Shown one piece after another: positions 985-16,351 of a stretch of 29,753 bases of DNA (position 1 is its first letter; every line of letters begins with the position of its first letter). Origin of the DNA: a virus (lineage: Duplodnaviria > Heunggongvirae > Uroviricota > Caudoviricetes); the IMG/VR virus record IMGVR_UViG_2541047785_000004, positions 1-29,753 of that record; one strand, written 5' to 3'. Below the pieces are notes generated by a model. The model did no database searches. It saw nothing but the letters and a program-made list of their open reading frames with translations, and had not been told where the DNA came from. Position numbers and translations under genes: made by a program.

Positions 985-4697
<3,713 letters not shown>

Positions 4698-5193
4698 ATT
4701 CCTTCATTTTTTCAGCGGACTCAACGCATTTATTAGCCCCCTTCGCAACCAGCTCTTTTAGATAAGCCAATTGTCTGCCTGTCAATTCAGGGAATTTTCT
4801 TTGCATCGAAAGCGGAATACTGTCCAAAACAGATGCCAGTTCTCCGGATAACCGAGACAGGGCAAAAATAGAGAAAGCTGTATCAATCACCTTATGCTCT
4901 GCAACCTGGTTTTTTAACCGCTGAGCAATAGCCTGTTCTTCCGTCAGGTTAACCCTGGCCTGAAGTAGCCTTTCCTCAAGATCATTTTCACCACCTGAAG
5001 ATTTCTGGTTTTGTTGACGTCGCTCGCGATCTATCTCCAGTACAGTTTTAACGTCATAGAAAACCTCTCTCCCCCGGCGCTCAACAGGAGGAACACCCCA
5101 TTTATCAAATGCCTGTACTGAGATACCGATGGAGGAGGCCATGTCGCTTTTATTCAATAAAAAGGCCACAGCCCCTCCATAAACCACCGGCAA

Positions 5194-5400
5194 AAAAGCA
5201 ATACAACAACCACGTTTTTTGTAAAACCCTCTGATTTTACATGCTTTTTCGTATAAGAAAGATCATCAGGTTGTTGTGTTTATTTTTCTTTCTTATTACT
5301 TATCAAGTAGATATATCAAACGATAAAACAACAACCATCACCTCAAAAAAACTCGTAAATAGCGAAAACCCGCGAGGTCGCCGCCCCGTAGCCTGCCGGA
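5194..5400. other. cos packaging site: cosB-like repeats (5203-5341) and cosN core (about 5357-5390), reverse complement of the lambda left end
   Basis: Reverse complement of 5357-5387 reads GGGGCGGCGACCTCGCGGGTTTTCGCTATTT, i.e. the lambda 12-nt cohesive end GGGCGGCGACCT plus flanking sequence. Three copies of ACAACAACC(A) (5204-5213, 5328-5341, inverted at 5269-5280) lie between cosN and the Nu1 start. Confidence 0.85.
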
Positions 5401-5946
5401 TCACCGGAAAGGACCCGCAAAACCGAGAATAAGTATCAATACTATTTGTGATTTGAATGATGCACATCATTGAAACGCCATTCATCCATATACCAGCAGC
5501 ATTCGGTGTTGCACTTCGTAACTCTGTGACTACGGTTATAAAAGCATTGGCAACTTTTGCCACCGGCAAGTCTTCAATGGATTTCCCCTGCCGGTTTTTT
5601 ATTTTCGTCGATGCATAACATTGCATTTACATCAATAGCAGCTATTGTCATTAGTATGTTGCATCGATGCATGGGTGGTATTGGCGGTCTTCGCCGACCG
5701 GTTCTGTGTAGCTCCCTATGACCGGTTTTTTATTTCTAAGATTACAGAAGCCCTTCACTGTATGAAGGGCTTCTGTAACTCTTCTTACTTAGTAATTTTC
5801 GCACCTTCCGGTATTTCCATGAGTTGAGAAATCCTCATACTATCCGACAATAATCATCAATATACGATAAAGACATCTGACCAGATTGCAGTATTAAAAG
5901 CACTCATGCAGACTACGCCCCTCATATCATATACAAGGGGATACTG

Positions 5947-6357
5947 ATGGCTCAGGTTGCCATTTTTAAAGAAATATTTGATCAAGTGCGGAAAGATTTA
6001 AACTGTGACCGGTTTTACTCTGAACTAAAACGCCACAATGTCTCACATTACATTTACTATTTAGCCACAGGTAATATTCACATTGTATTTGAGAGCGATA
6101 ACACGGTGTTAATAAAAGGTTTCCATGATGTTATTCATGTTAGCTTTTGCAGAGACACGCGACTTATAGAAACTTACCTTCATAAGTTGAAATCAAGAGA
6201 AATCACATTTCATGAATACAGGGTAAATCTGGCTAAAGCTGGAGTTTTCCGATGGGTTACAAATATCCACGAACACAAAAGATATTACTATACCTTTGAC
6301 AACTCATTATTGTTTACCGAAAGCATCCAGAACACGACTCAAATTTTTCCACGCTAA
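5947..6357 (+). CDS. DUF1398-like protein (YbcV-like / lambda right-end ORF), 136 aa
   Basis: ATG with upstream AAGGGGA; [40 protein letters not shown]...[18 protein letters not shown] closely resembles the recalled lambda/DLP12 right-arm ORF next to bor. Confidence 0.8.
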
Positions 6358-6581
6358 ACCATAACGTCCGGTTTGATCCGCCTCAGTAGCCGGCACTCCC
6401 ACACAGGAGTTACCAGTCGGTGCTGTGGCCATAGTTAATCTGGGTATACAGTAAAGATACAGCACATCTGGCATACTTTAATAAACATTAACAATATGAG
6501 ATTTCAACTCATTGTTTAGGTTTTGTTTAAATTTCCACAAATACGATGCACCAAACTTAAAAACACAACGGGAATCACACG

Positions 6582-6875
6582 ATGAAAAAAACGCTACTCA
6601 CTTTCACACTGGCGCTGCTTATCTCTGGATGTGCTCAACAGACGTTTACAGTTGAAAACAAACCTACAACAGTAACACCGAAGGAAACCATCACTCATCA
6701 TTTCTTCGTTTCAGGAATTGGTCAGAAGAAAACTGTCGATGCAGCCAAAATTTGTGGTGGCGCAGATAAAGTTGTTAAAACTGAAACCCAGCAAACATTC
6801 GTAAATGGATTGCTCGGTTTTATTACTTTAGGCATTTATACTCCGCTTGAAGCTCGGGTCTATTGCTCACAATAA
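6582..6875 (+). CDS. bor: Bor lipoprotein (serum-resistance lipoprotein), 97 aa
   Basis: MKKTLLTFTLALLISGCAQQTFTVENKP...: signal peptide with lipobox LISGC; near-identical to lambda Bor as recalled; opposite strand to the lysis genes as in lambda. Confidence 0.9.
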   Translation: MKKTLLTFTLALLISGCAQQTFTVENKPTTVTPKETITHHFFVSGIGQKKTVDAAKICGGADKVVKTETQQTFVNGLLGFITLGIYTPLEARVYCSQ

Positions 6876-7305: not shown

Positions 7306-7860
7306 TTATAAACCAACGCGCTCTTTCATCCAGCCATAGACAAACGACTCGTTAGCCTCGCGTTTCTCTGCCAGCGCCAGATAACGCTCACCCTGCGTAC
7401 AGTTCAGGGCTTTCACCAGTACCAGTTCGCCATCCCTGCCGCGATTTTTCAGATAAGAACGTAACGCATTAATGGTTCGCGGCCCGATCCCCCCGTCTGT
7501 AACTATGTCCGGATACAGCATTCCCTTCTGATTAAACACATTCAGCCAGCGCTGAAGCATTTTTGTGGCTACCGACGGCCCCATGTTTACCCCAGTATCA
7601 CACAGTTCTGCAGCAATATCAGGAGACAGGTTTGCCACCTGGTCAAAACGAGGTCCATACCAATAGTCCGCCTCAAGGATTTCCAGAGCCTGCCCGCGGC
7701 TCAAATCACGCATATCACCACGGTAACCATGCGCGCGCGCCACTTTTTCAGTAATTCCCCACTTCGTCGCTCCGCCTGTATCGTCAGGATGACTGACATA
7801 CCCCCCCTCTTTTCCGAGGATTTCATCAAAAATTTCATCTCTCGATTTCATATCAGCCAC
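7306..7860 (-). CDS. Endolysin, GH108-type N-terminal domain plus peptidoglycan-binding C-terminal domain; start may be the ATG at 7851
   Basis: EILGKEGGYVSHPDDTGGATKWGITEKVARAHGY is the characteristic GH108 N-terminal signature. Lies immediately downstream of two membrane-protein genes; holin stop and endolysin start overlap (GTGgcTGAtATG). Confidence 0.8.
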   Translation of the reverse strand: MADMKSRDEIFDEILGKEGGYVSHPDDTGGATKWGITEKVARAHGYRGDMRDLSRGQALEILEADYWYGPRFDQVANLSPDIAAELCDTGVNMGPSVATKMLQRWLNVFNQKGMLYPDIVTDGGIGPRTINALRSYLKNRGRDGELVLVKALNCTQGERYLALAEKREANESFVYGWMKERVGL

Positions 7861-8131
7861 TCAGGAAAGCAAAAATTTTTGAAACATTACCGCGCGCACG
7901 CACTACCATGACACCAAACACCAGGTTCAGCATCACTACCAGCCAGTCTGCCGGCAACGGATGACCACAGAGATAACTTAACGGCGTTATCGCATACAAC
8001 AGCATCAGACACCAGGCGCACCACGATATCAGCGGTTTGTGTCGGGACTCTTTTCTGCGGTAGAAAAAAAGCGTCAGTACGATAACCGTACATAACGCCG
8101 CATTCAGTAATCCTGGAAGATTATTTGTCAT
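7853..8131 (-). CDS. Putative holin (class I-like, three predicted TM segments), about 92 aa from the ATG at 8131
   Basis: GGAGG before the ATG at 8131; three hydrophobic helices (LLNAALCTVIVLTLFFY, LISWCAWCLMLLYAITPL, WLVVMLNLVFGVMVV); overlaps the upstream gene stop (ATGACAAATAA) and sits directly upstream of the endolysin. Confidence 0.55.
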   Translation of the reverse strand: MTNNLPGLLNAALCTVIVLTLFFYRRKESRHKPLISWCAWCLMLLYAITPLSYLCGHPLPADWLVVMLNLVFGVMVVRARGNVSKIFAFLSG

Positions 8132-8513
8132 TACCACCACCTCCTCCACGCTGACGGGAGAACAGACCGGATACCAGTGATGTAATCTCCTGCTGGTGGA
8201 TGAATGACAGGACTTTTACTGAGAGCACCGACACCAGGACCGCACACAACGCATCAACGGAAGCACTGTTAAACCCAATACGTTCCGCCATGTAACCGGC
8301 CACACCACGGGCCCCAAGCACACCAACAATAAAGGACACCAGAAAATGTGCAGCCACACGCCAGGCTGAAAGTGTCTGCGGCATTGTTGCCACAAATAAC
8401 GCACCAGCGAACGCACCAAATACAATCCCGAAATCCGTCCCGGTAAACAGCCCGAATACCGTCGCCCCGCCGAGCGCCACAGCAGTGCCGGAACCGGATA
8501 AGGGTTCAGACAT
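8121..8513 (-). CDS. Glycine-rich multi-pass membrane protein, holin/antiholin-like, 130 aa from the ATG at 8513
   Basis: AGGAGA 7 nt upstream of the ATG at 8513; MSEPLSGSGTAVALGGATVFGLFTGTDFGIVFGAFAGALFVATMP... has several hydrophobic Gly/Ala-rich helices; first gene of the lysis cluster. Confidence 0.5.
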   Translation of the reverse strand: MSEPLSGSGTAVALGGATVFGLFTGTDFGIVFGAFAGALFVATMPQTLSAWRVAAHFLVSFIVGVLGARGVAGYMAERIGFNSASVDALCAVLVSVLSVKVLSFIHQQEITSLVSGLFSRQRGGGGGNDK

Positions 8514-8598
8514 ATTTATTCTCCTGTAAATAAAAAGGACCATCAGCGGCCCTAAAAAACTTTATCAAAGGTACCCGCAGATACCTTTTGTAGGCTGT

Positions 8599-8751
8599 TT
8601 ATTCAGATTTGCGAAGTAAAGGCCAGAGTAAGACCGTTACCATCGCCACCAGCACACCATCAGCCAGTACCGACATCAGCCATCCAGTGAAATCCACTGC
8701 CACTACCAGAAACAACAGGATGGCAGCCAGCACAAGGCGCGCACTTTTCAC
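8599..8751 (-). CDS. Possible 50-aa two-helix membrane peptide (GTG start overlapping the TerB-like stop, GTGA)
   Basis: Manual minus-strand translation: VKSARLVLAAILLFLVVAVDFTGWLMSVLADGVLVAMVTVLLWPLLRKSE*; two hydrophobic helices; below the ORF-track size cut-off. Confidence 0.25.
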   Translation of the reverse strand: MKSARLVLAAILLFLVVAVDFTGWLMSVLADGVLVAMVTVLLWPLLRKSE

Positions 8752-9173
8752 AGATACTGCTCCAGTGGTAACTGAAGCGCCTGTGCAATTTTCTTGAGCT
8801 GCGCTTCTTCATCCGGACCAATGCCATCCTGATCAGCGATATCCAGACAGAGGCAAAGCACGTCAACCGCCTCAGTTGTCCCCGCCACATCAGCCAGCTC
8901 ACGCAATGCATGCGCATTCGCACTACGCGGTGACGCTTCATAACGGGCGCGGATATTGGCGCTCATCTGGGCAATCTCACCAGAGAACGGTGCAAAAGCA
9001 GGAAGCGCAGCAATAGTTTTCTCCAGTACTGCGATTTCTTTCGCATCGCAGGTGCCGTCGGCATATGCAATGGAATATGCGCCCCAGACGGTCGCCTCCA
9101 CCGCATCACGGTTCTCCATCTTCTTCACTTCTGTGATGGCCTTGCGGGTTTTCTTTTTGAAAATACCTAACAT
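8748..9173 (-). CDS. TerB-like (tellurite-resistance TerB fold) protein, 141 aa
   Basis: AAGGAAAAG RBS before the ATG at 9173; two repeated acidic motifs (AYADGTCDAKEIAVLEK... and DIADQDGIGPDEEAQLKKIAQAL) typical of TerB-domain proteins. Confidence 0.55.
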   Translation of the reverse strand: MLGIFKKKTRKAITEVKKMENRDAVEATVWGAYSIAYADGTCDAKEIAVLEKTIAALPAFAPFSGEIAQMSANIRARYEASPRSANAHALRELADVAGTTEAVDVLCLCLDIADQDGIGPDEEAQLKKIAQALQLPLEQYL

Positions 9174-9354: not shown

Positions 9355-9633
9355 TTATCCACGAAGCATGACACTGAACTCATCCATGCCTACACGGCTG
9401 GCTATCTCGTTGTATTCCTCAACAAGAGCCAGCAATTCTGAATTAGCAGCCATGAACTCATCAAAAACCTTATGGATGGCATCACTGTTTAATAAAACAA
9501 TGTTCTTTCCTGAAAGGCGATCAGGGGTAGAAAATATAACTGTTAAACGACTAAAGGCCCTGGCTCGTTCAGCATTAACATCCTCAATACGCAGCAACAA
9601 GCTGGAGCACCTGGAAATATCATCAATATTCAC
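9355..9633 (-). CDS. Hypothetical protein, 92 aa (GTG start with AGGAG upstream)
   Basis: Complete ORF in the late operon direction; no recognisable motif. Confidence 0.45.
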   Translation of the reverse strand: MNIDDISRCSSLLLRIEDVNAERARAFSRLTVIFSTPDRLSGKNIVLLNSDAIHKVFDEFMAANSELLALVEEYNEIASRVGMDEFSVMLRG

Positions 9634-10149: not shown

Positions 10150-11235
10150 TTAGCTCCTGTTCTTATCTAATTGTGCATTTCGCAATTTATCGTTCAGCAC
10201 CAATATTTCACCAACTGTTTGTTCAAAACGCCCGGACTCAAGTTCAACCCCAATCGTGCGACGCCCCAATCCCATTGCTGCTTTTATTGTTGCCCCCGAT
10301 CCCATAAAAAAATCCGCAACCACATCCCCCGGACGACTGCTGGCAGAAATTATCTGACGCAACATATCCGCCGGTTTTTCGCAGGGATGCTTACCCGGAT
10401 AATACTGCACGGGCTTATGCGTCCAGACGTCCGTATAAGGAACGGCGGCCGATACAGAAAAATAACGCCGCAGAGATTTGTATTCCTCAAGCAGACTGGC
10501 ATATTGCCGGTTCAGTTCACTGTATGTGCTGACCAGTTGCTGGTGTGGCGTTGCCAGCTCCCCACGCTGGTGCTTTTCTTCTGCAACACACGCGAACAGC
10601 GCCTGCAGTTTTCTGTAATCAGCTTCGTTCGGTAACTGCCACTGACAGGTACCAAACCAGTGCGACACCATGTTTTTCTTTCCGGTGGCTTCCGCTATCT
10701 GTTTGGACGTTATCCCCAGTGATTCACGCGCATCACGGAAGTAAGAAATCAGCGGGGCCATGACATGTTGTTTAAGCTCGCGCTCCTTTGCCGCATAGCC
10801 ATCATTTTTTGGCTGGTATGGCCCCTGATAATGTTCGGCAAACAGAATGCGCTCTGTTGCCGGGAAATACGCCCGCAGGCTTTCTTTGTTGCACCCGTTC
10901 CAGCGTCCGGACGGCTTCGCCCAGATAATGTGGTTCAGCACATTAAAGCGCTCACGCATCATGATTTCGATATCAGATGCCAGGCGATGACCACAAAACA
11001 GGTAAAGACTTCCGGCAGGCTTCAGTACCCGCCAGAACTGAGCCAGACACTGGTCCAGCCATTTCAGGTAATCATCGTCGCCCTTCCACTGGTTATCCCA
11101 GCCCTCGGGCTTCACTTTAAAATATGGCGGGTCTGTGACTATAAGATCGACAGAGTTTTCCGATAAGGTCTGGATAAATTCCAGGCAATCGGTGTTGATT
11201 AACTCACAACTGGATATTTTTACAGTATCAACCAT
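10150..11235 (-). CDS. Orphan DNA methyltransferase (beta-class amino-MTase, N6-adenine or N4-cytosine), 361 aa
   Basis: Motif IV DPPY (LIVTDPPYF) near the N-terminus and the AdoMet motif FxGxG (DFFMGSGAT) near the C-terminus, the beta-class order; no adjacent restriction endonuclease gene. Confidence 0.9.
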   Translation of the reverse strand: MVDTVKISSCELINTDCLEFIQTLSENSVDLIVTDPPYFKVKPEGWDNQWKGDDDYLKWLDQCLAQFWRVLKPAGSLYLFCGHRLASDIEIMMRERFNVLNHIIWAKPSGRWNGCNKESLRAYFPATERILFAEHYQGPYQPKNDGYAAKERELKQHVMAPLISYFRDARESLGITSKQIAEATGKKNMVSHWFGTCQWQLPNEADYRKLQALFACVAEEKHQRGELATPHQQLVSTYSELNRQYASLLEEYKSLRRYFSVSAAVPYTDVWTHKPVQYYPGKHPCEKPADMLRQIISASSRPGDVVADFFMGSGATIKAAMGLGRRTIGVELESGRFEQTVGEILVLNDKLRNAQLDKNRS

Positions 11236-11385
11236 AGATCAATAAGCACTTCTCTGATAGGCTCATACCGCTTTTGCGCAAAGCGGATGGGCCTGAGGTT
11301 TGCTTGTGACCCCGATTCATGAGCAGATGGCTGGCAGGTGCCGCTAACACCCACCAGCCGCCCATTACCACAAAGTAAAAAGCCT

Positions 11386-11583
11386 TCACTGCGGAAGGCG
11401 TCTGTAACAACCGAACTGATAATCTGCCAGACCCGCCATAACAAGCTGGGTCAGTATTAACTGACAGCGTTCGCGTGAAAGGTAAGTATTCTGCGCAATT
11501 TCCCCAACTGTTGCCGGTTCAGTGACGCTTAATTCATTAAACACCACTCTGGCTGTTTCTGTCATATCCTGCTGTTTTAGCAT
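11386..11583 (-). CDS. Small hypothetical protein, possible winged-helix DNA-binding protein, 65 aa
   Basis: ORF MLKQQDMTETARVVFNELSVTEPATVGEIAQNTYLSRERCQLILTQLVMAGLADYQFGCYRRLPQ with helix-turn-helix-like character; weak RBS. Confidence 0.4.
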   Translation of the reverse strand: MLKQQDMTETARVVFNELSVTEPATVGEIAQNTYLSRERCQLILTQLVMAGLADYQFGCYRRLPQ

Positions 11584-11755
11584 GTCTTTTTCTCTTTATT
11601 GGTTAACGTGACATACCAATAACTCTTGTCGAAGAAGCCAGCAAGCTGAAAGACCGGTATTAATAACCACCTGCACATTTTATGTACCGAACCATTTTTC
11701 TGGCATAAAAACCTCTCAATGGCGGGCGGTAAAAATCTTTGTTACTCAAGAAATT

Positions 11756-12469
11756 TTAACGCACTCTGACTGTATTAATTTCAAAATCATTAATATTTCC
11801 GCTATTAAATATAACGAATTTCTTACCCCCACTCCTGTATGATTTCGATAACACCAGACGATCATCATAACGCGCAATAATGTAATACCATACATTCTCA
11901 TAGTGGATCGCCTGATATTCCCTCTTAAACTGTGGTTTGTACCAACCGGCAATAAGAGAGAATGCCCAGAAATAAATCATAAACCCAGCCATCATGAACT
12001 CAATTCGGTGATGGCGAATAAAAGACATTTCCGAAAAACATTTGACTGAAACAAGTCTTCTTCCAGACCTGACAAAAAGCGTGATTGTAAAGGCAGCAAG
12101 AATGCAGAAAATCAGTACATCTGGCTCAACATGCTGATGAATTACCGAAAACTCCAGAACAGGTGGAATAAAAAGCAGCAATATCGCGAGAAAAAGCCGG
12201 ATAAAACTCAAATTTTGTATATTGCGCTTTTGTTTTATGCCCAAAAAGAAAACAATACCAACTCCCCATCCAATAAGGAATATAACGATAACTGTCACAG
12301 CATAAAACAAACTTCGTGCTACATCATCGACACCAGCCCCGACAACCCACCATGGAAAGCCATAGTAAAATGAAGTACCCCATCCATAGAAATAAGCGCT
12401 TCCCCATCCTAGACAGCCCATATAAGCAACAAAAAGTGAAGAGTTTCTGAGCAGAGCACTGTCATCCAT
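11756..12469 (-). CDS. Multi-pass integral membrane protein of unknown function (cargo downstream of pR'/tR'), 237 aa
   Basis: Low-GC ORF with 4-5 hydrophobic helices rich in Trp/Tyr/Gly/Phe (e.g. FYGWGTSFYYGFPWWVVGAGV, VTVIVIFLIGWGVGIVFFLGI) and a C-terminal soluble segment; first gene after the late promoter/terminator unit. Confidence 0.7.
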   Translation of the reverse strand: MDDSALLRNSSLFVAYMGCLGWGSAYFYGWGTSFYYGFPWWVVGAGVDDVARSLFYAVTVIVIFLIGWGVGIVFFLGIKQKRNIQNLSFIRLFLAILLLFIPPVLEFSVIHQHVEPDVLIFCILAAFTITLFVRSGRRLVSVKCFSEMSFIRHHRIEFMMAGFMIYFWAFSLIAGWYKPQFKREYQAIHYENVWYYIIARYDDRLVLSKSYRSGGKKFVIFNSGNINDFEINTVRVR

Positions 12470-12608
12470 AGTAACACCATTAACAACTCAAAAATATCAA
12501 CACATATTACATAACAAATTGGATTCCATGCAGTCAAGGGGCGTCATTGATGGAGAAAGTATTGGCACAATCATCATCACGTTTAATGTCTATGCCATTT
12601 TTTTGGGG

Positions 12609-12638
12609 ATAAAAAAAACCCGCTCGGTCACGGGTTTT
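12609..12638 (-). terminator. Rho-independent terminator (tR'-like) ending a short late leader transcript
   Basis: Minus-strand RNA AACCCGUGACCGAGCGGGUU followed by UUUUUUUU (plus strand 12611-12636 aaaaaaaacccgctcggtcacgggtt). Confidence 0.7.
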
Positions 12639-12688
12639 ACTAGCTTTGCCATCACGTATAAAAACGGCAAAATATCAGATTCACACGA

Positions 12689-12717
12689 AATATATGCCTT
12701 TTTATCTACTTTTGCAA
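12689..12717 (-). promoter_or_regulatory. Candidate late promoter (pR'-like): TTGCAA-N17-TATATT on the minus strand
   Basis: -35 TTGCAA (12712-12717), 17-nt spacer, -10 TATATT (complement of 12689-12694); lies 8 nt after the Q-position gene stop and about 70 nt upstream of the tR'-like terminator. Confidence 0.5.
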
Positions 12718-12724
12718 TACTTTG

Positions 12725-13396
12725 CTATGAAAATGCCGCCTTTTGTTCTGAACGTGCTCCCTCCACCAACAATAAAGCTTCACCATCCAGCCGATGAAAA
12801 ATGTGTTTCATTGCAACCCAGTGACCAGTAAATGTCTTGGACCAGTTTTTGGTTGTTACTCCCACCAGTAACGCCAGTTCCTGGTATTCGTAACCTTCCC
12901 CACCAAAAAGCTCAGCTTTTACCGCCTGCGCCGCCAACCAGATCAACGTCTTCAGGCGCACCAGAGTTTTTCCTGCAATTTTTCTGGTACCGGATTGAGC
13001 ATTAAATTCAGTCCACGCCCACTGCGTTATCGCGATCTGATACTCCCAGCAAATGCTACCGCTGTAACACCACAGCAGCCAGGCTTTATGATGTTCTTCA
13101 AGAGACAGAACGGCGCGTCGCCATGATGATGTCGAAAACTCAACCGGACTGACCAGGGCAATTGAAGAACCTTTCGCCAGCGATTGCTTTCCCGGGATCG
13201 GTGGATTATCCAGCGTTACTATTTTTCCAGTGACCTTATCGCGGTACCGGATTTTTTTACGTCTGTAACGCCCTGTATTGAACATGGCATTCTCCTGCCA
13301 GGCTTCAAGCTGACCTTTTGTTGCTCCACTCAAATCAGCGGTGGCGATCGTGAGCTGCTCACGCACAAACTGTAAATACTGGTTATTCATGCGCAC
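12725..13396 (-). CDS. Putative late-gene antiterminator (Q-position protein, family not recognised), about 221 aa from the ATG at 13390
   Basis: Occupies the Q position between rusA and the late promoter/terminator; ATG at 13390 overlaps the rusA stop (ATGA). No Zn-finger like lambda Q; functional call rests on synteny only. Confidence 0.5.
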   Translation of the reverse strand: MRMNNQYLQFVREQLTIATADLSGATKGQLEAWQENAMFNTGRYRRKKIRYRDKVTGKIVTLDNPPIPGKQSLAKGSSIALVSPVEFSTSSWRRAVLSLEEHHKAWLLWCYSGSICWEYQIAITQWAWTEFNAQSGTRKIAGKTLVRLKTLIWLAAQAVKAELFGGEGYEYQELALLVGVTTKNWSKTFTGHWVAMKHIFHRLDGEALLLVEGARSEQKAAFS

Positions 13397-15505: not shown

Positions 15506-15988
15506 TTATAAAAAGTCAAATGATAGTTGATCCATATAAAATCCTAATTCGCGCAAAACCACCTCGGCAAACAAATCTGCTTGCCATTCAGCATCTTCAA
15601 TTTGCGAAGGTGGTTTATTGGAACTGTGAAATAACGCTCTATGCCCCAACACCAAATGTCCGATTTCATGAAAGAGCACAAATAATGCTTCTCTATCACC
15701 TTTACATGCCAACTCAAATGTATGATTCGGCACACTAATTGTCAGTGTAATTGGATCGTAATGCCCAGATGTCAAATCATATGTAGCTTTAGTCCACGCA
15801 CGATCCTCAACGATATTGAGCGTTATCCCATATTCACTCAACAACTCAAATGCATGGTCTAACCGCTTTTTTCTTTTCAACGTTTTAAGGTCGAAGATCG
15901 CGCTATAGTTAACAGCGCGAGTTGTTATATCAACAATACTCATTGGTGCAACACGATTTCCACGTAATGTGTAAGCTGATTGTTCCAA
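15506..15988 (-). CDS. ImmA/IrrE-family zinc metallopeptidase (HEIGH motif), 160 aa, TTG start
   Basis: FVLFHEIGHLVLGHRALF contains the HExxH zinc-binding motif typical of ImmA/IrrE (COG2856) peptidases; TTG start 6 nt after the HTH gene stop with GAGGG RBS. Confidence 0.8.
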   Translation of the reverse strand: MEQSAYTLRGNRVAPMSIVDITTRAVNYSAIFDLKTLKRKKRLDHAFELLSEYGITLNIVEDRAWTKATYDLTSGHYDPITLTISVPNHTFELACKGDREALFVLFHEIGHLVLGHRALFHSSNKPPSQIEDAEWQADLFAEVVLRELGFYMDQLSFDFL

Positions 15989-15991
15989 CGA

Positions 15992-16351
15992 TTATCCCTC
16001 AACATGATTAATACTTTTCATCAACTCTGCTATTCGCTTTAACTGCTCTGGTGTTAATGGGGATTTAGCAAAACCAGCAACCAACATTTGCTGATTTTGC
16101 GACAATCCATCAAGGGAAACAAACTGATTAGATACATCAGCCAATTCCTGAAGATTATTAATCTCATAACCTCTTTTCAGGAAAAAAGCCTGAATCTCTT
16201 TTACCCATTTTTTGGGGATTTTCTTACTGCCTGTTTCTAAACCGCTCAGAAAAGCTGAAGTTACTCCCAGTTCTTGGGCCATCGTAAGCAATGTGCAGTC
16301 GGTATCTATCCTCGCTTTTCTAACGGCCTTACCGAATTCAGTGAGTGCCAT
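15992..16351 (-). CDS. XRE-family helix-turn-helix transcriptional regulator, 119 aa
   Basis: N-terminal HTH (AVRKARIDTDCTLLTMAQELGVTSAFLSGLETG); GAGGA RBS; co-oriented with and immediately upstream of the ImmA-like gene. Confidence 0.85.
   Translation of the reverse strand: MALTEFGKAVRKARIDTDCTLLTMAQELGVTSAFLSGLETGSKKIPKKWVKEIQAFFLKRGYEINNLQELADVSNQFVSLDGLSQNQQMLVAGFAKSPLTPEQLKRIAELMKSINHVEG

Follow-up and report, generated by a model that had tools for sequence, protein, structure and literature searches.

The late regions of lambdoid prophages hold cargo between the antiterminator gene Q and the holin genes, of which stx (Shiga toxin) is an example, and this cargo is inserted after the late terminator tR' and is present in some prophages and absent from others. 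Phages also encode, as accessory genes, small non-enzymatic inner-membrane exclusion proteins which act at the periplasmic face, such as P22 SieA, T4 Imm and HK97 gp15. A further family of membrane proteins, catalogued as TfpB or STM1630, has members in phage 434, in Escherichia coli O157:H7, on plasmids of enterotoxigenic E. coli (ETEC) and in Salmonella. The Salmonella gene STM1630 is transcribed from a mapped start site that has its own −10 box (PMC6785131), clusters with genes that depend on the regulators of Salmonella pathogenicity island 2 (SPI-2) (PMC2639726), is up-regulated in macrophages and has its promoter inactivated in ST313 strains (PMC6785131, bioRxiv 450098). Its deletion had no effect on replication in macrophages (PMC6785131); hypermotility of an STM1630 mutant was reported in one screen and was among the phenotypes re-examined with marker-free deletions, for some of which the authors suspected polar effects. 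Here we describe a member of this family in a 29,753-nucleotide stretch of DNA from a virus of the Caudoviricetes (positions 1 to 29,753 of the IMG/VR record IMGVR_UViG_2541047785_000004, the whole of which we call the window), in which a minus-strand gene at 11756..12469, with an ATG start, encodes a 237-amino-acid protein with five predicted membrane helices and a C-terminal beta domain. The gene forms a self-contained cassette, exchanged horizontally and placed directly after tR' of a late unit of the phage-82 type, and its product belongs to the TfpB/STM1630 family, a conclusion in which we have high confidence.

The first-pass annotation had placed this gene directly downstream of a late promoter and terminator, and each element of such a unit could be mapped upstream of it on the minus strand. 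The antiterminator gene Q (12725..13396) is of the phage-82 type (PF06323, E 4.1e-89; RefSeq 'bacteriophage antitermination protein Q'). A pR'-like, sigma-70-like late promoter (TTGCAA-17-TATATT, 12689..12717), located by promoter scan and direct reading, begins 8 nt past the Q stop codon and aligns with the counterpart region of phage 434, and a terminator scan found a tR'-like intrinsic terminator (9-bp stem, eight T) at 12607..12638, whose counterpart by alignment in phage 434 is the terminator annotated behind the Q82-like gene. The membrane-protein gene starts 137 nt downstream of tR'. Direct reading also revealed an extended −10-like element, TGATATTTT, at 12669..12677 (minus strand), which covers roughly positions +6 to +14 of the late transcript predicted from this promoter, and phage 434 carries TGGTATGTT at the aligned position. 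Loading of Q82 in phage 82 takes place at a sigma-70 pause, which is induced by a −10-like element near +10 to +15, and by analogy TGATATTTT is put forward as a sigma-70 pause site at which Q would load.

The boundaries of the cassette were determined by comparing the window with four E. coli prophages that have a common DUF968-RusA-Q backbone (A37, O157:H7 FRIK2069, DG341-1 and MB06234), and delimit an exchangeable segment of ~885 bp at 11727..12611 (minus strand) which carries the membrane-protein gene. In all three of the prophages without a TfpB-type gene, homology to the window ends at 12612, within the T-tract of tR', and the DNA beyond is four tRNA genes and then the holin in strain A37, three tRNAs, TerB, DUF3927 and a SASA esterase (a set like that of Stx phages) in FRIK2069, and a PemK/MazF-family toxin gene in place of the TfpB cassette in strain MB06234 (locus L029). 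Isolate DG341-1 (locus L028) has a TfpB-type gene and then tRNAs after tR', and here homology runs to 11742. In MB06234 homology returns at 11726, which is 30 nt beyond the membrane-protein gene's stop codon, and spans a 65-amino-acid open reading frame and a methyltransferase gene; because homology breaks at 12612 and at 11726 in this prophage, the membrane-protein gene is delimited as a module of ~885 bp. Homology between the window and the ETEC plasmid copy is limited to 12518..11754. The earlier suggestion that this is a cargo slot is thus upheld, as tRNAs, a MazF-like toxin gene or a TfpB-type gene occupy the same point in prophages of the same backbone, and the cassette lies on the same strand between Q/pR'/tR' and the holin with a sharply bounded presence/absence polymorphism. 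It shares with stx and other Q-to-holin cargo the insertion point after tR' and this polymorphism, but differs from stx and tRNA cargo in that its product is an integral membrane protein and that it has a promoter-like element of its own. The low GC content that had been remarked on is also evident, at 0.392 for the gene against 0.475 for the window and 0.47–0.54 for the flanking genes (Q 0.49, RusA 0.49, DUF968 0.54, methyltransferase 0.50), which is the deviant base composition looked for in a moron.

Family membership was assigned through homologues. In a collection of 5.8 billion proteins we found 104, every one of which carries the precomputed Pfam annotation PF27470 'TfpB', including proteins 95–98% identical to the query such as P0001 (98%) and P0002, the representative of the query's own cluster; judged by this annotation the window protein very likely belongs to PF27470, while the query itself gave no match to a copy of Pfam-A that lacked the PF27470 model. 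It also matches PHROG 1521, of unknown function, with E 6.7e-86, residues 17–237 aligning with positions 1–221 of the 222-position profile. A prophage 99.4% identical over a 1.3-kb query carries the RefSeq protein WP_000342735.1, a near-identical E. coli copy named 'STM1630 family protein', and since NCBIfam release 20 gave no match to the membrane protein no model of that release is the source of this name. The Salmonella cluster P0070 (2681 members) aligns at 48% identity over 100% coverage (E 1.5e-69). A profile search of 1.84 billion cluster representatives returned only 74 matches, and the family is therefore narrow; its named members are from Escherichia, Shigella, Salmonella, Citrobacter, Klebsiella, Enterobacter, Cronobacter, Yersinia, Mangrovibacter, several Pasteurellaceae and Neisseria. 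An E. coli fragment bears the label 'protein tfpB', and the tfpB open reading frame of the Moraxella pilin-inversion region may be the origin of the family name. The literature search retrieved no paper defining 'TfpB' for PF27470 (its matches concerned type IV pilus motors or chemistry) and nothing for 'toxin flanking protein', and the sources searched give no function for the TfpB/STM1630 family. A Pfam scan of 37 aligned members produced only scattered chance-level matches, for example bPH_10 in one member (E 0.045).

The family is common in E. coli: at DNA level 1197 of 5426 complete genomes (~22%) have a match, O157:H7 included, and in 460 of them a match covers at least 80% of the gene; among 50,697 phage records a homologue is found only in phages 434 and 2B8. 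An identical protein is already in public databases and the 90%-identity cluster has 441 members. The window protein is homologous to the TfpB/STM1630/PHROG 1521 family over its full length and shows no structural difference from it: it is an ordinary member of a catalogued, uncharacterised family and is not new.

Each set of homologues has a different genomic context. In phage 434 the homologue CPT_434_68 (56% identical) stands at the same site, after an 82-type Q and its terminator, in the order lpxR, ylcG, Q82-like gene, terminator, homologue, DUF3927 (TciB), a small membrane-protein gene, SASA esterase and pinholin, and it has the same upstream motif, TTGAC..TGTTATG, as the window gene. 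The O157:H7 protein WP_001302581.1 ('putative membrane protein') is encoded in the same arrangement as in phage 434 and behind the same motif. Both loci differ from the window in that a DUF3927 (TciB) gene follows and lpxR lies upstream of Q, neither of which is in the window, and phage 434 differs further in its SASA-family esterase gene and its pinholin lysis cassette, both absent from the window. In Yersinia enterocolitica the Q that precedes the gene belongs to another family, PF06530, and because of this the association is with the slot and not with one type of Q. The gene for the lipid A deacylase LpxR is a recurrent neighbour of the family, and in phage 434 and O157:H7 it immediately precedes ylcG and Q (L002, 2666-5717; L024, 4907-7957). 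A 3-kb contig labelled 'Veillonella sp. MAG' (JAIITD010000172.1, locus L003) carries a remnant of a tR'-like terminator, the promoter motif of the cassette and a TfpB gene that hardly differs from the 434 copy, and is probably mis-binned E. coli phage DNA.

Other members lie away from any late region. Salmonella STM1630 is 48% identical to the window protein over its full length and has the same layout of helices and beta domain, but differs in being chromosomal and divergently transcribed next to sseJ with no phage genes nearby, with an upstream region unrelated to that of the window and its own host-regulated promoter; the locus is found in subspecies enterica, arizonae and diarizonae. At the syntenic site in the Citrobacter rodentium chromosome a homologue is divergent from an adjacent lpxR gene that is split into two open reading frames (L020, 3863-5717), and this locus resembles a decayed 434-like prophage; sseJ in Salmonella occupies the site that corresponds to the Citrobacter lpxR. 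On ETEC plasmids (L009-L013 at ~3987-6714, L025 at 4001-6728) a 75%-identical copy lies among insertion sequence elements, 866 bp from and divergent to the heat-labile enterotoxin I (LT-I) genes eltAB, with the STb gene ~3 kb off. Its homology to the window reaches no further than 49 nt upstream of the start codon, from which it follows that the LT-I locus contains part of a lambdoid late-region cassette. The Avibacterium, Gallibacterium and Neisseria copies are single genes set among housekeeping genes. A distant homologue, whose cluster also contains a Klebsiella electrica protein, is flanked on one side by an AAA_23/AAA_21 ATPase pair with a 167-amino-acid gene and on the other by icd (L030/L031, 2176-5741); icd is a known prophage integration site and this neighbourhood resembles a defence island.

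The gene is under purifying selection wherever this could be estimated. The ratio of non-synonymous to synonymous substitution (dN/dS) is 0.05–0.07, a sign of strong purifying selection, among the three Salmonella subspecies and 0.08–0.17 among Escherichia alleles, the ETEC plasmid copy being at 0.17, and this range of 0.05–0.17 covers all comparisons in which dS could be estimated; when the window allele is compared with that of 434, synonymous sites have reached saturation (dS above 2). Purifying selection in loci that hold no lysis or virion genes implies that the protein is maintained there, and together with the 104 homologues these values establish that the open reading frame is a real gene and not a chance one.

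Upstream of the gene is a conserved promoter-like element, TTGACT, 15 nt, TGT, TATGTA, at 12508..12537 (minus strand). Written as TTGAC-N14-17-TGTTATG, the motif occurs once in the window against 0.03 expected by chance, and exactly once, upstream of the gene, in 13 of 13 Escherichia-type loci, whereas it is found in none of the 16 other loci. In the loci spot-checked it lies ~40 nt before the start codon, and it is kept despite unrelated upstream sequence (ETEC plasmid, locus L005) and despite a dS above 2. Also in favour of a promoter specific to the gene, the Salmonella orthologue has a −10 box and a mapped start in an upstream region that differs from this one (PMC6785131). The motif reads as a −35 hexamer and an extended −10 (TGn-TATGTA), and the cassette therefore probably has its own promoter of the sigma-70 type, to judge from the conservation of these bases. 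Given such an element within the cassette, expression need not depend on read-through from pR', the route by which the first-pass annotation had supposed the gene might be expressed in lysogens; high expression late in induction, which it had also supposed, would be expected from the position of the gene.

Kyte-Doolittle peaks and two AlphaFold2 models agree on helices at about residues 10-36, 47-78, 89-111, 116-135 and 155-181, and the models add five beta strands at residues 184-235, C-terminal to the helices (the second model, built on a 37-sequence alignment, has a mean pLDDT of 80.7 and a pTM of 0.74). The first-pass annotation had described four or five membrane helices rich in aromatic residues and glycine. 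Five helices are indeed predicted, but marked aromatic and glycine richness is confined to helix 1 and the loop after it (GWGSAYFYGWG-SFYYGFPWW), and the beta domain had not been foreseen. Among Enterobacterales members column identity averages 0.84 in helix 1 and 0.74 in loop 1, the highest values, and is lowest, at 0.23–0.35, in loop 3, helix 4 and loop 4. Across all 37 aligned members, distant ones included, the only near-invariant residues are A15, A25, Y26, Y28, G37, P39, F167, G175 and Y195, and this alignment has no conserved His, Asp, Glu, Ser or Cys suggestive of catalysis. As no catalytic-looking polar residue is kept family-wide, the protein most likely acts as a binding protein, not as an enzyme. 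In the same alignment loops 2 and 4 hold on average 3.6 and 4.3 Lys+Arg, against 1.0 and 0.8 in loops 1 and 3, and by the positive-inside rule this distribution puts the N-terminus in the cytoplasm. We infer a five-pass inner-membrane protein with its N-terminus inside, in which the conserved helix 1 and loop 1 and the C-terminal beta domain would face the periplasm.

The start codon (region 12421..12469 in the window) is called inconsistently across the family: the PHROG 1521 profile begins at residue 17 of the open reading frame, and the annotated start of the phage 434 homologue is 9 codons upstream of the conserved Met (L002, 4974-5000). Conservation of residues 10-16 in distant members supports the ATG at 12469. 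Sequence and structure searches placed the protein in no known lysis-accessory or structural family. Foldseek comparison of the better model with the PDB and BFVD gave nothing significant (best E 0.08), its MscS and SH3/Sm-domain matches having TM-scores <0.21, and the only fold-search neighbours of the C-terminal beta domain are weak, non-significant SH3/Sm-type beta domains; a profile search against all PDB sequences gave no match even at E up to 10.

Taken together, the reading that we prefer, and hold tentatively as a whole, is that the gene encodes an envelope gatekeeper. As the first gene of the Q-antiterminated late transcript, and with an extended −10 sigma-70 promoter that would travel with it, it would give a product in the uninduced lysogen as well, which would serve the carrier cell and not virion assembly or lysis. 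The periplasm-facing surface of the protein would engage an inner-membrane or periplasmic component and so block the entry of foreign DNA or of membrane-targeting agents, making it a protein of the superinfection-exclusion or immunity type. The parts of this reading are not equally secure. A benefit to the carrier cell that is independent of lysis is probable, since the Salmonella copies have no adjacent phage genes, those of Avibacterium, Gallibacterium and Neisseria are solitary among housekeeping genes, the ETEC copy is retained between insertion sequence elements, and those of Salmonella and ETEC are under purifying selection, which argues for a function independent of lytic growth. The specific mechanism of exclusion or immunity is more doubtful than the reading as a whole; the hints towards it are the PemK/MazF-type toxin gene at the identical position in MB06234, the distant homologue beside an AAA_23/AAA_21 ATPase pair next to icd, and the fact that the gene stands alone without a partner. 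The likeness to SieA, Imm and HK97 gp15 is a proposed functional analogy only; no PHROG family annotated for exclusion and no Pfam family matches the window protein, and the BFVD search gave no significant fold similarity.

Several observations weigh against the gatekeeper. The topology is read solely from the positive-inside rule, and the C-terminal domain is itself basic. The putative −10 hexamer (TATGTA or TATGAG) lacks a T at position 6 and is weak, and a generic promoter scan missed the element. The terminator scan gave no terminator-like site from 11756 to 11583, the next being at 11399..11382, where the 65-amino-acid open reading frame of another module ends, and because it has no terminator of its own the cassette is not a textbook promoter-gene-terminator moron. 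The membrane protein matches no PADLOC defence model at E up to 0.01, no known experiment ties any TfpB/STM1630 member to phage exclusion or immunity, and the co-regulation of STM1630 with the SPI-2 virulence regulon and its induction in macrophages fit a role in host adaptation at least as well.

Host adaptation is the main rival and one that we judge unlikely: the protein would alter the envelope for colonisation of, or survival in, an animal host, its gene being spread by phages, plasmids and chromosomal islands as a lysogenic-conversion or fitness gene, for reasons unrelated to phage conflict. The SPI-2 link and macrophage induction of STM1630 and the inactivation of its promoter in ST313 speak for this (PMC2639726, PMC6785131, bioRxiv 450098), as do its place beside sseJ, the ETEC copies close to eltAB and the STb gene, the adjoining lpxR in phage 434, O157:H7 and Citrobacter, and the taxonomy of the named members, all of which belong to the Enterobacterales, Pasteurellaceae or Neisseria and are mostly animal-associated. 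However, the STM1630 deletion left macrophage replication unaffected, hypermotility was among the phenotypes re-examined, with polar effects suspected for some of them, and adjacency to toxins or effectors may be hitch-hiking in mobile DNA, given that the ETEC homology begins so close to the gene.

That the protein is a late lytic accessory, which would time the holin, prepare the envelope for lysis and release or block re-adsorption of virions to, or their injection into, the lysing cell, is improbable. The gene is the first open reading frame after tR' in a Q-dependent operon, upstream of the holins, and this position recurs behind two unrelated families of Q; yet it also occurs, and is under purifying selection, at loci devoid of lysis genes (Salmonella, Citrobacter, Pasteurellaceae, Neisseria and ETEC plasmids), many prophages of the same backbone lack it, the holins that accompany it are of unrelated types (Phage_holin_8 and a 3TM holin here, class II pinholins in 434 and O157:H7), and no Pfam or PHROG lysis family matches it. 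A helper in the export or release of the AB5-type toxins that share its neighbourhood (LT-I on plasmids, stx at the same position in phages) is very improbable. The gene does adjoin eltAB on many ETEC plasmids and occupies the stx position, where the O157:H7 prophage of the same backbone has tRNAs, TerB, DUF3927 and SASA esterase, but there is no toxin gene in the slot of the window, the Stx phages among the 50,697 phage records have no homologue, the ETEC copy is transcribed divergently from eltAB, and LT-II prophage loci have their toxin genes flanked by a lysozyme gene and not by a member of the TfpB family (PMC3252337). Both of these readings fit the distribution of the family poorly and we reject them. 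A functionless filler or decaying remnant, hitch-hiking in a recombination hotspot, is scarcely credible: no library searched assigns a function and many database entries are truncated, but most of the truncated entries are from short contigs or labelled partial, and the dN/dS of 0.05–0.17, the full-length conservation across genera and the conserved upstream motif contradict it.

The membrane-protein gene is the first in a 4.1-kb stretch of cargo which precedes the holins, with all genes of the slot on the minus strand, and the order given for them in the first-pass annotation was accurate. It is followed by the 65-amino-acid open reading frame (11386..11583; PHROG 331), for which the winged helix-turn-helix resemblance then proposed corresponds to a weak TrmB-type match below cut-off (E 0.0026). 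We considered this open reading frame as a partner of the membrane protein and rejected it, as it stays with the methyltransferase gene when the cassette is swapped for the MazF-like toxin gene; the pair is a separate module, and the methyltransferase is no partner of the membrane protein either. In that prophage a solitary PemK/MazF toxin gene (L029, 6390-6791) lies directly after tR' and before the same 65-amino-acid open reading frame and methyltransferase gene. A terminator-like hairpin found by the terminator scan (11382..11399, minus strand) overlaps the 3' end of the open reading frame, upstream of the methyltransferase gene, and would stop transcripts from the cassette's own promoter unless RNA polymerase were Q-modified. 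The N6/N4 DNA methyltransferase (10150..11235; PF01555, E 6.3e-43; PADLOC MTase_II, E 3e-152) has no nuclease gene beside it, in keeping with its earlier description as an orphan. Next come a 92-amino-acid protein with no assigned function (9355..9633; PHROG 2873, E 6.5e-46) and a TerB-like protein (8748..9173; PF05099, E 3.6e-7; PHROG 632, E 2.5e-65), and a lysis cassette (7306..8543) closes the slot with two holins, Phage_holin_8 and a 3TM holin (8121..8543 and 7853..8149; PF16931, PF05449), and a GH108 endolysin (7306..7860; PF05838, PF09374).

Further accessory genes lie outside the slot. A low-GC gene pair at 15506..16351 (minus strand), between the DUF968 region and hokD, encodes a 119-amino-acid protein with a weak XRE-type helix-turn-helix match and then a 160-amino-acid protein with a HEIGH motif and a weak Peptidase_M78 (ImmA/IrrE-like) match, both matches being below the curated cut-off. 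Two more, a DUF1398 protein (5947..6357) and a Bor lipoprotein (6582..6875), are encoded on the opposite (plus) strand between the lysis and terminase genes (5947..6875).

It is possible, though we think it unlikely, that TfpB/STM1630 represents an unrecognised class of single-gene, non-enzymatic envelope gatekeeper, in which the conserved aromatic/Gly surface facing the periplasm and the small beta domain would keep out phage DNA or membrane-targeting toxins, and which has been spread by lambdoid prophages as the first cassette of the late operon and by plasmids and domesticated in Salmonella under virulence regulation. The family is common, occurring in phage 434, O157:H7, LT plasmids and Salmonella, yet has no known function, fold relative or partner, and the window offers its cleanest context, with a sharply bounded cassette after tR' and natural prophages of the same backbone that lack it. 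A phenotype would give several thousand proteins in the databases an annotation in one step and would clarify what non-Stx lambdoid prophages carry at the stx position.

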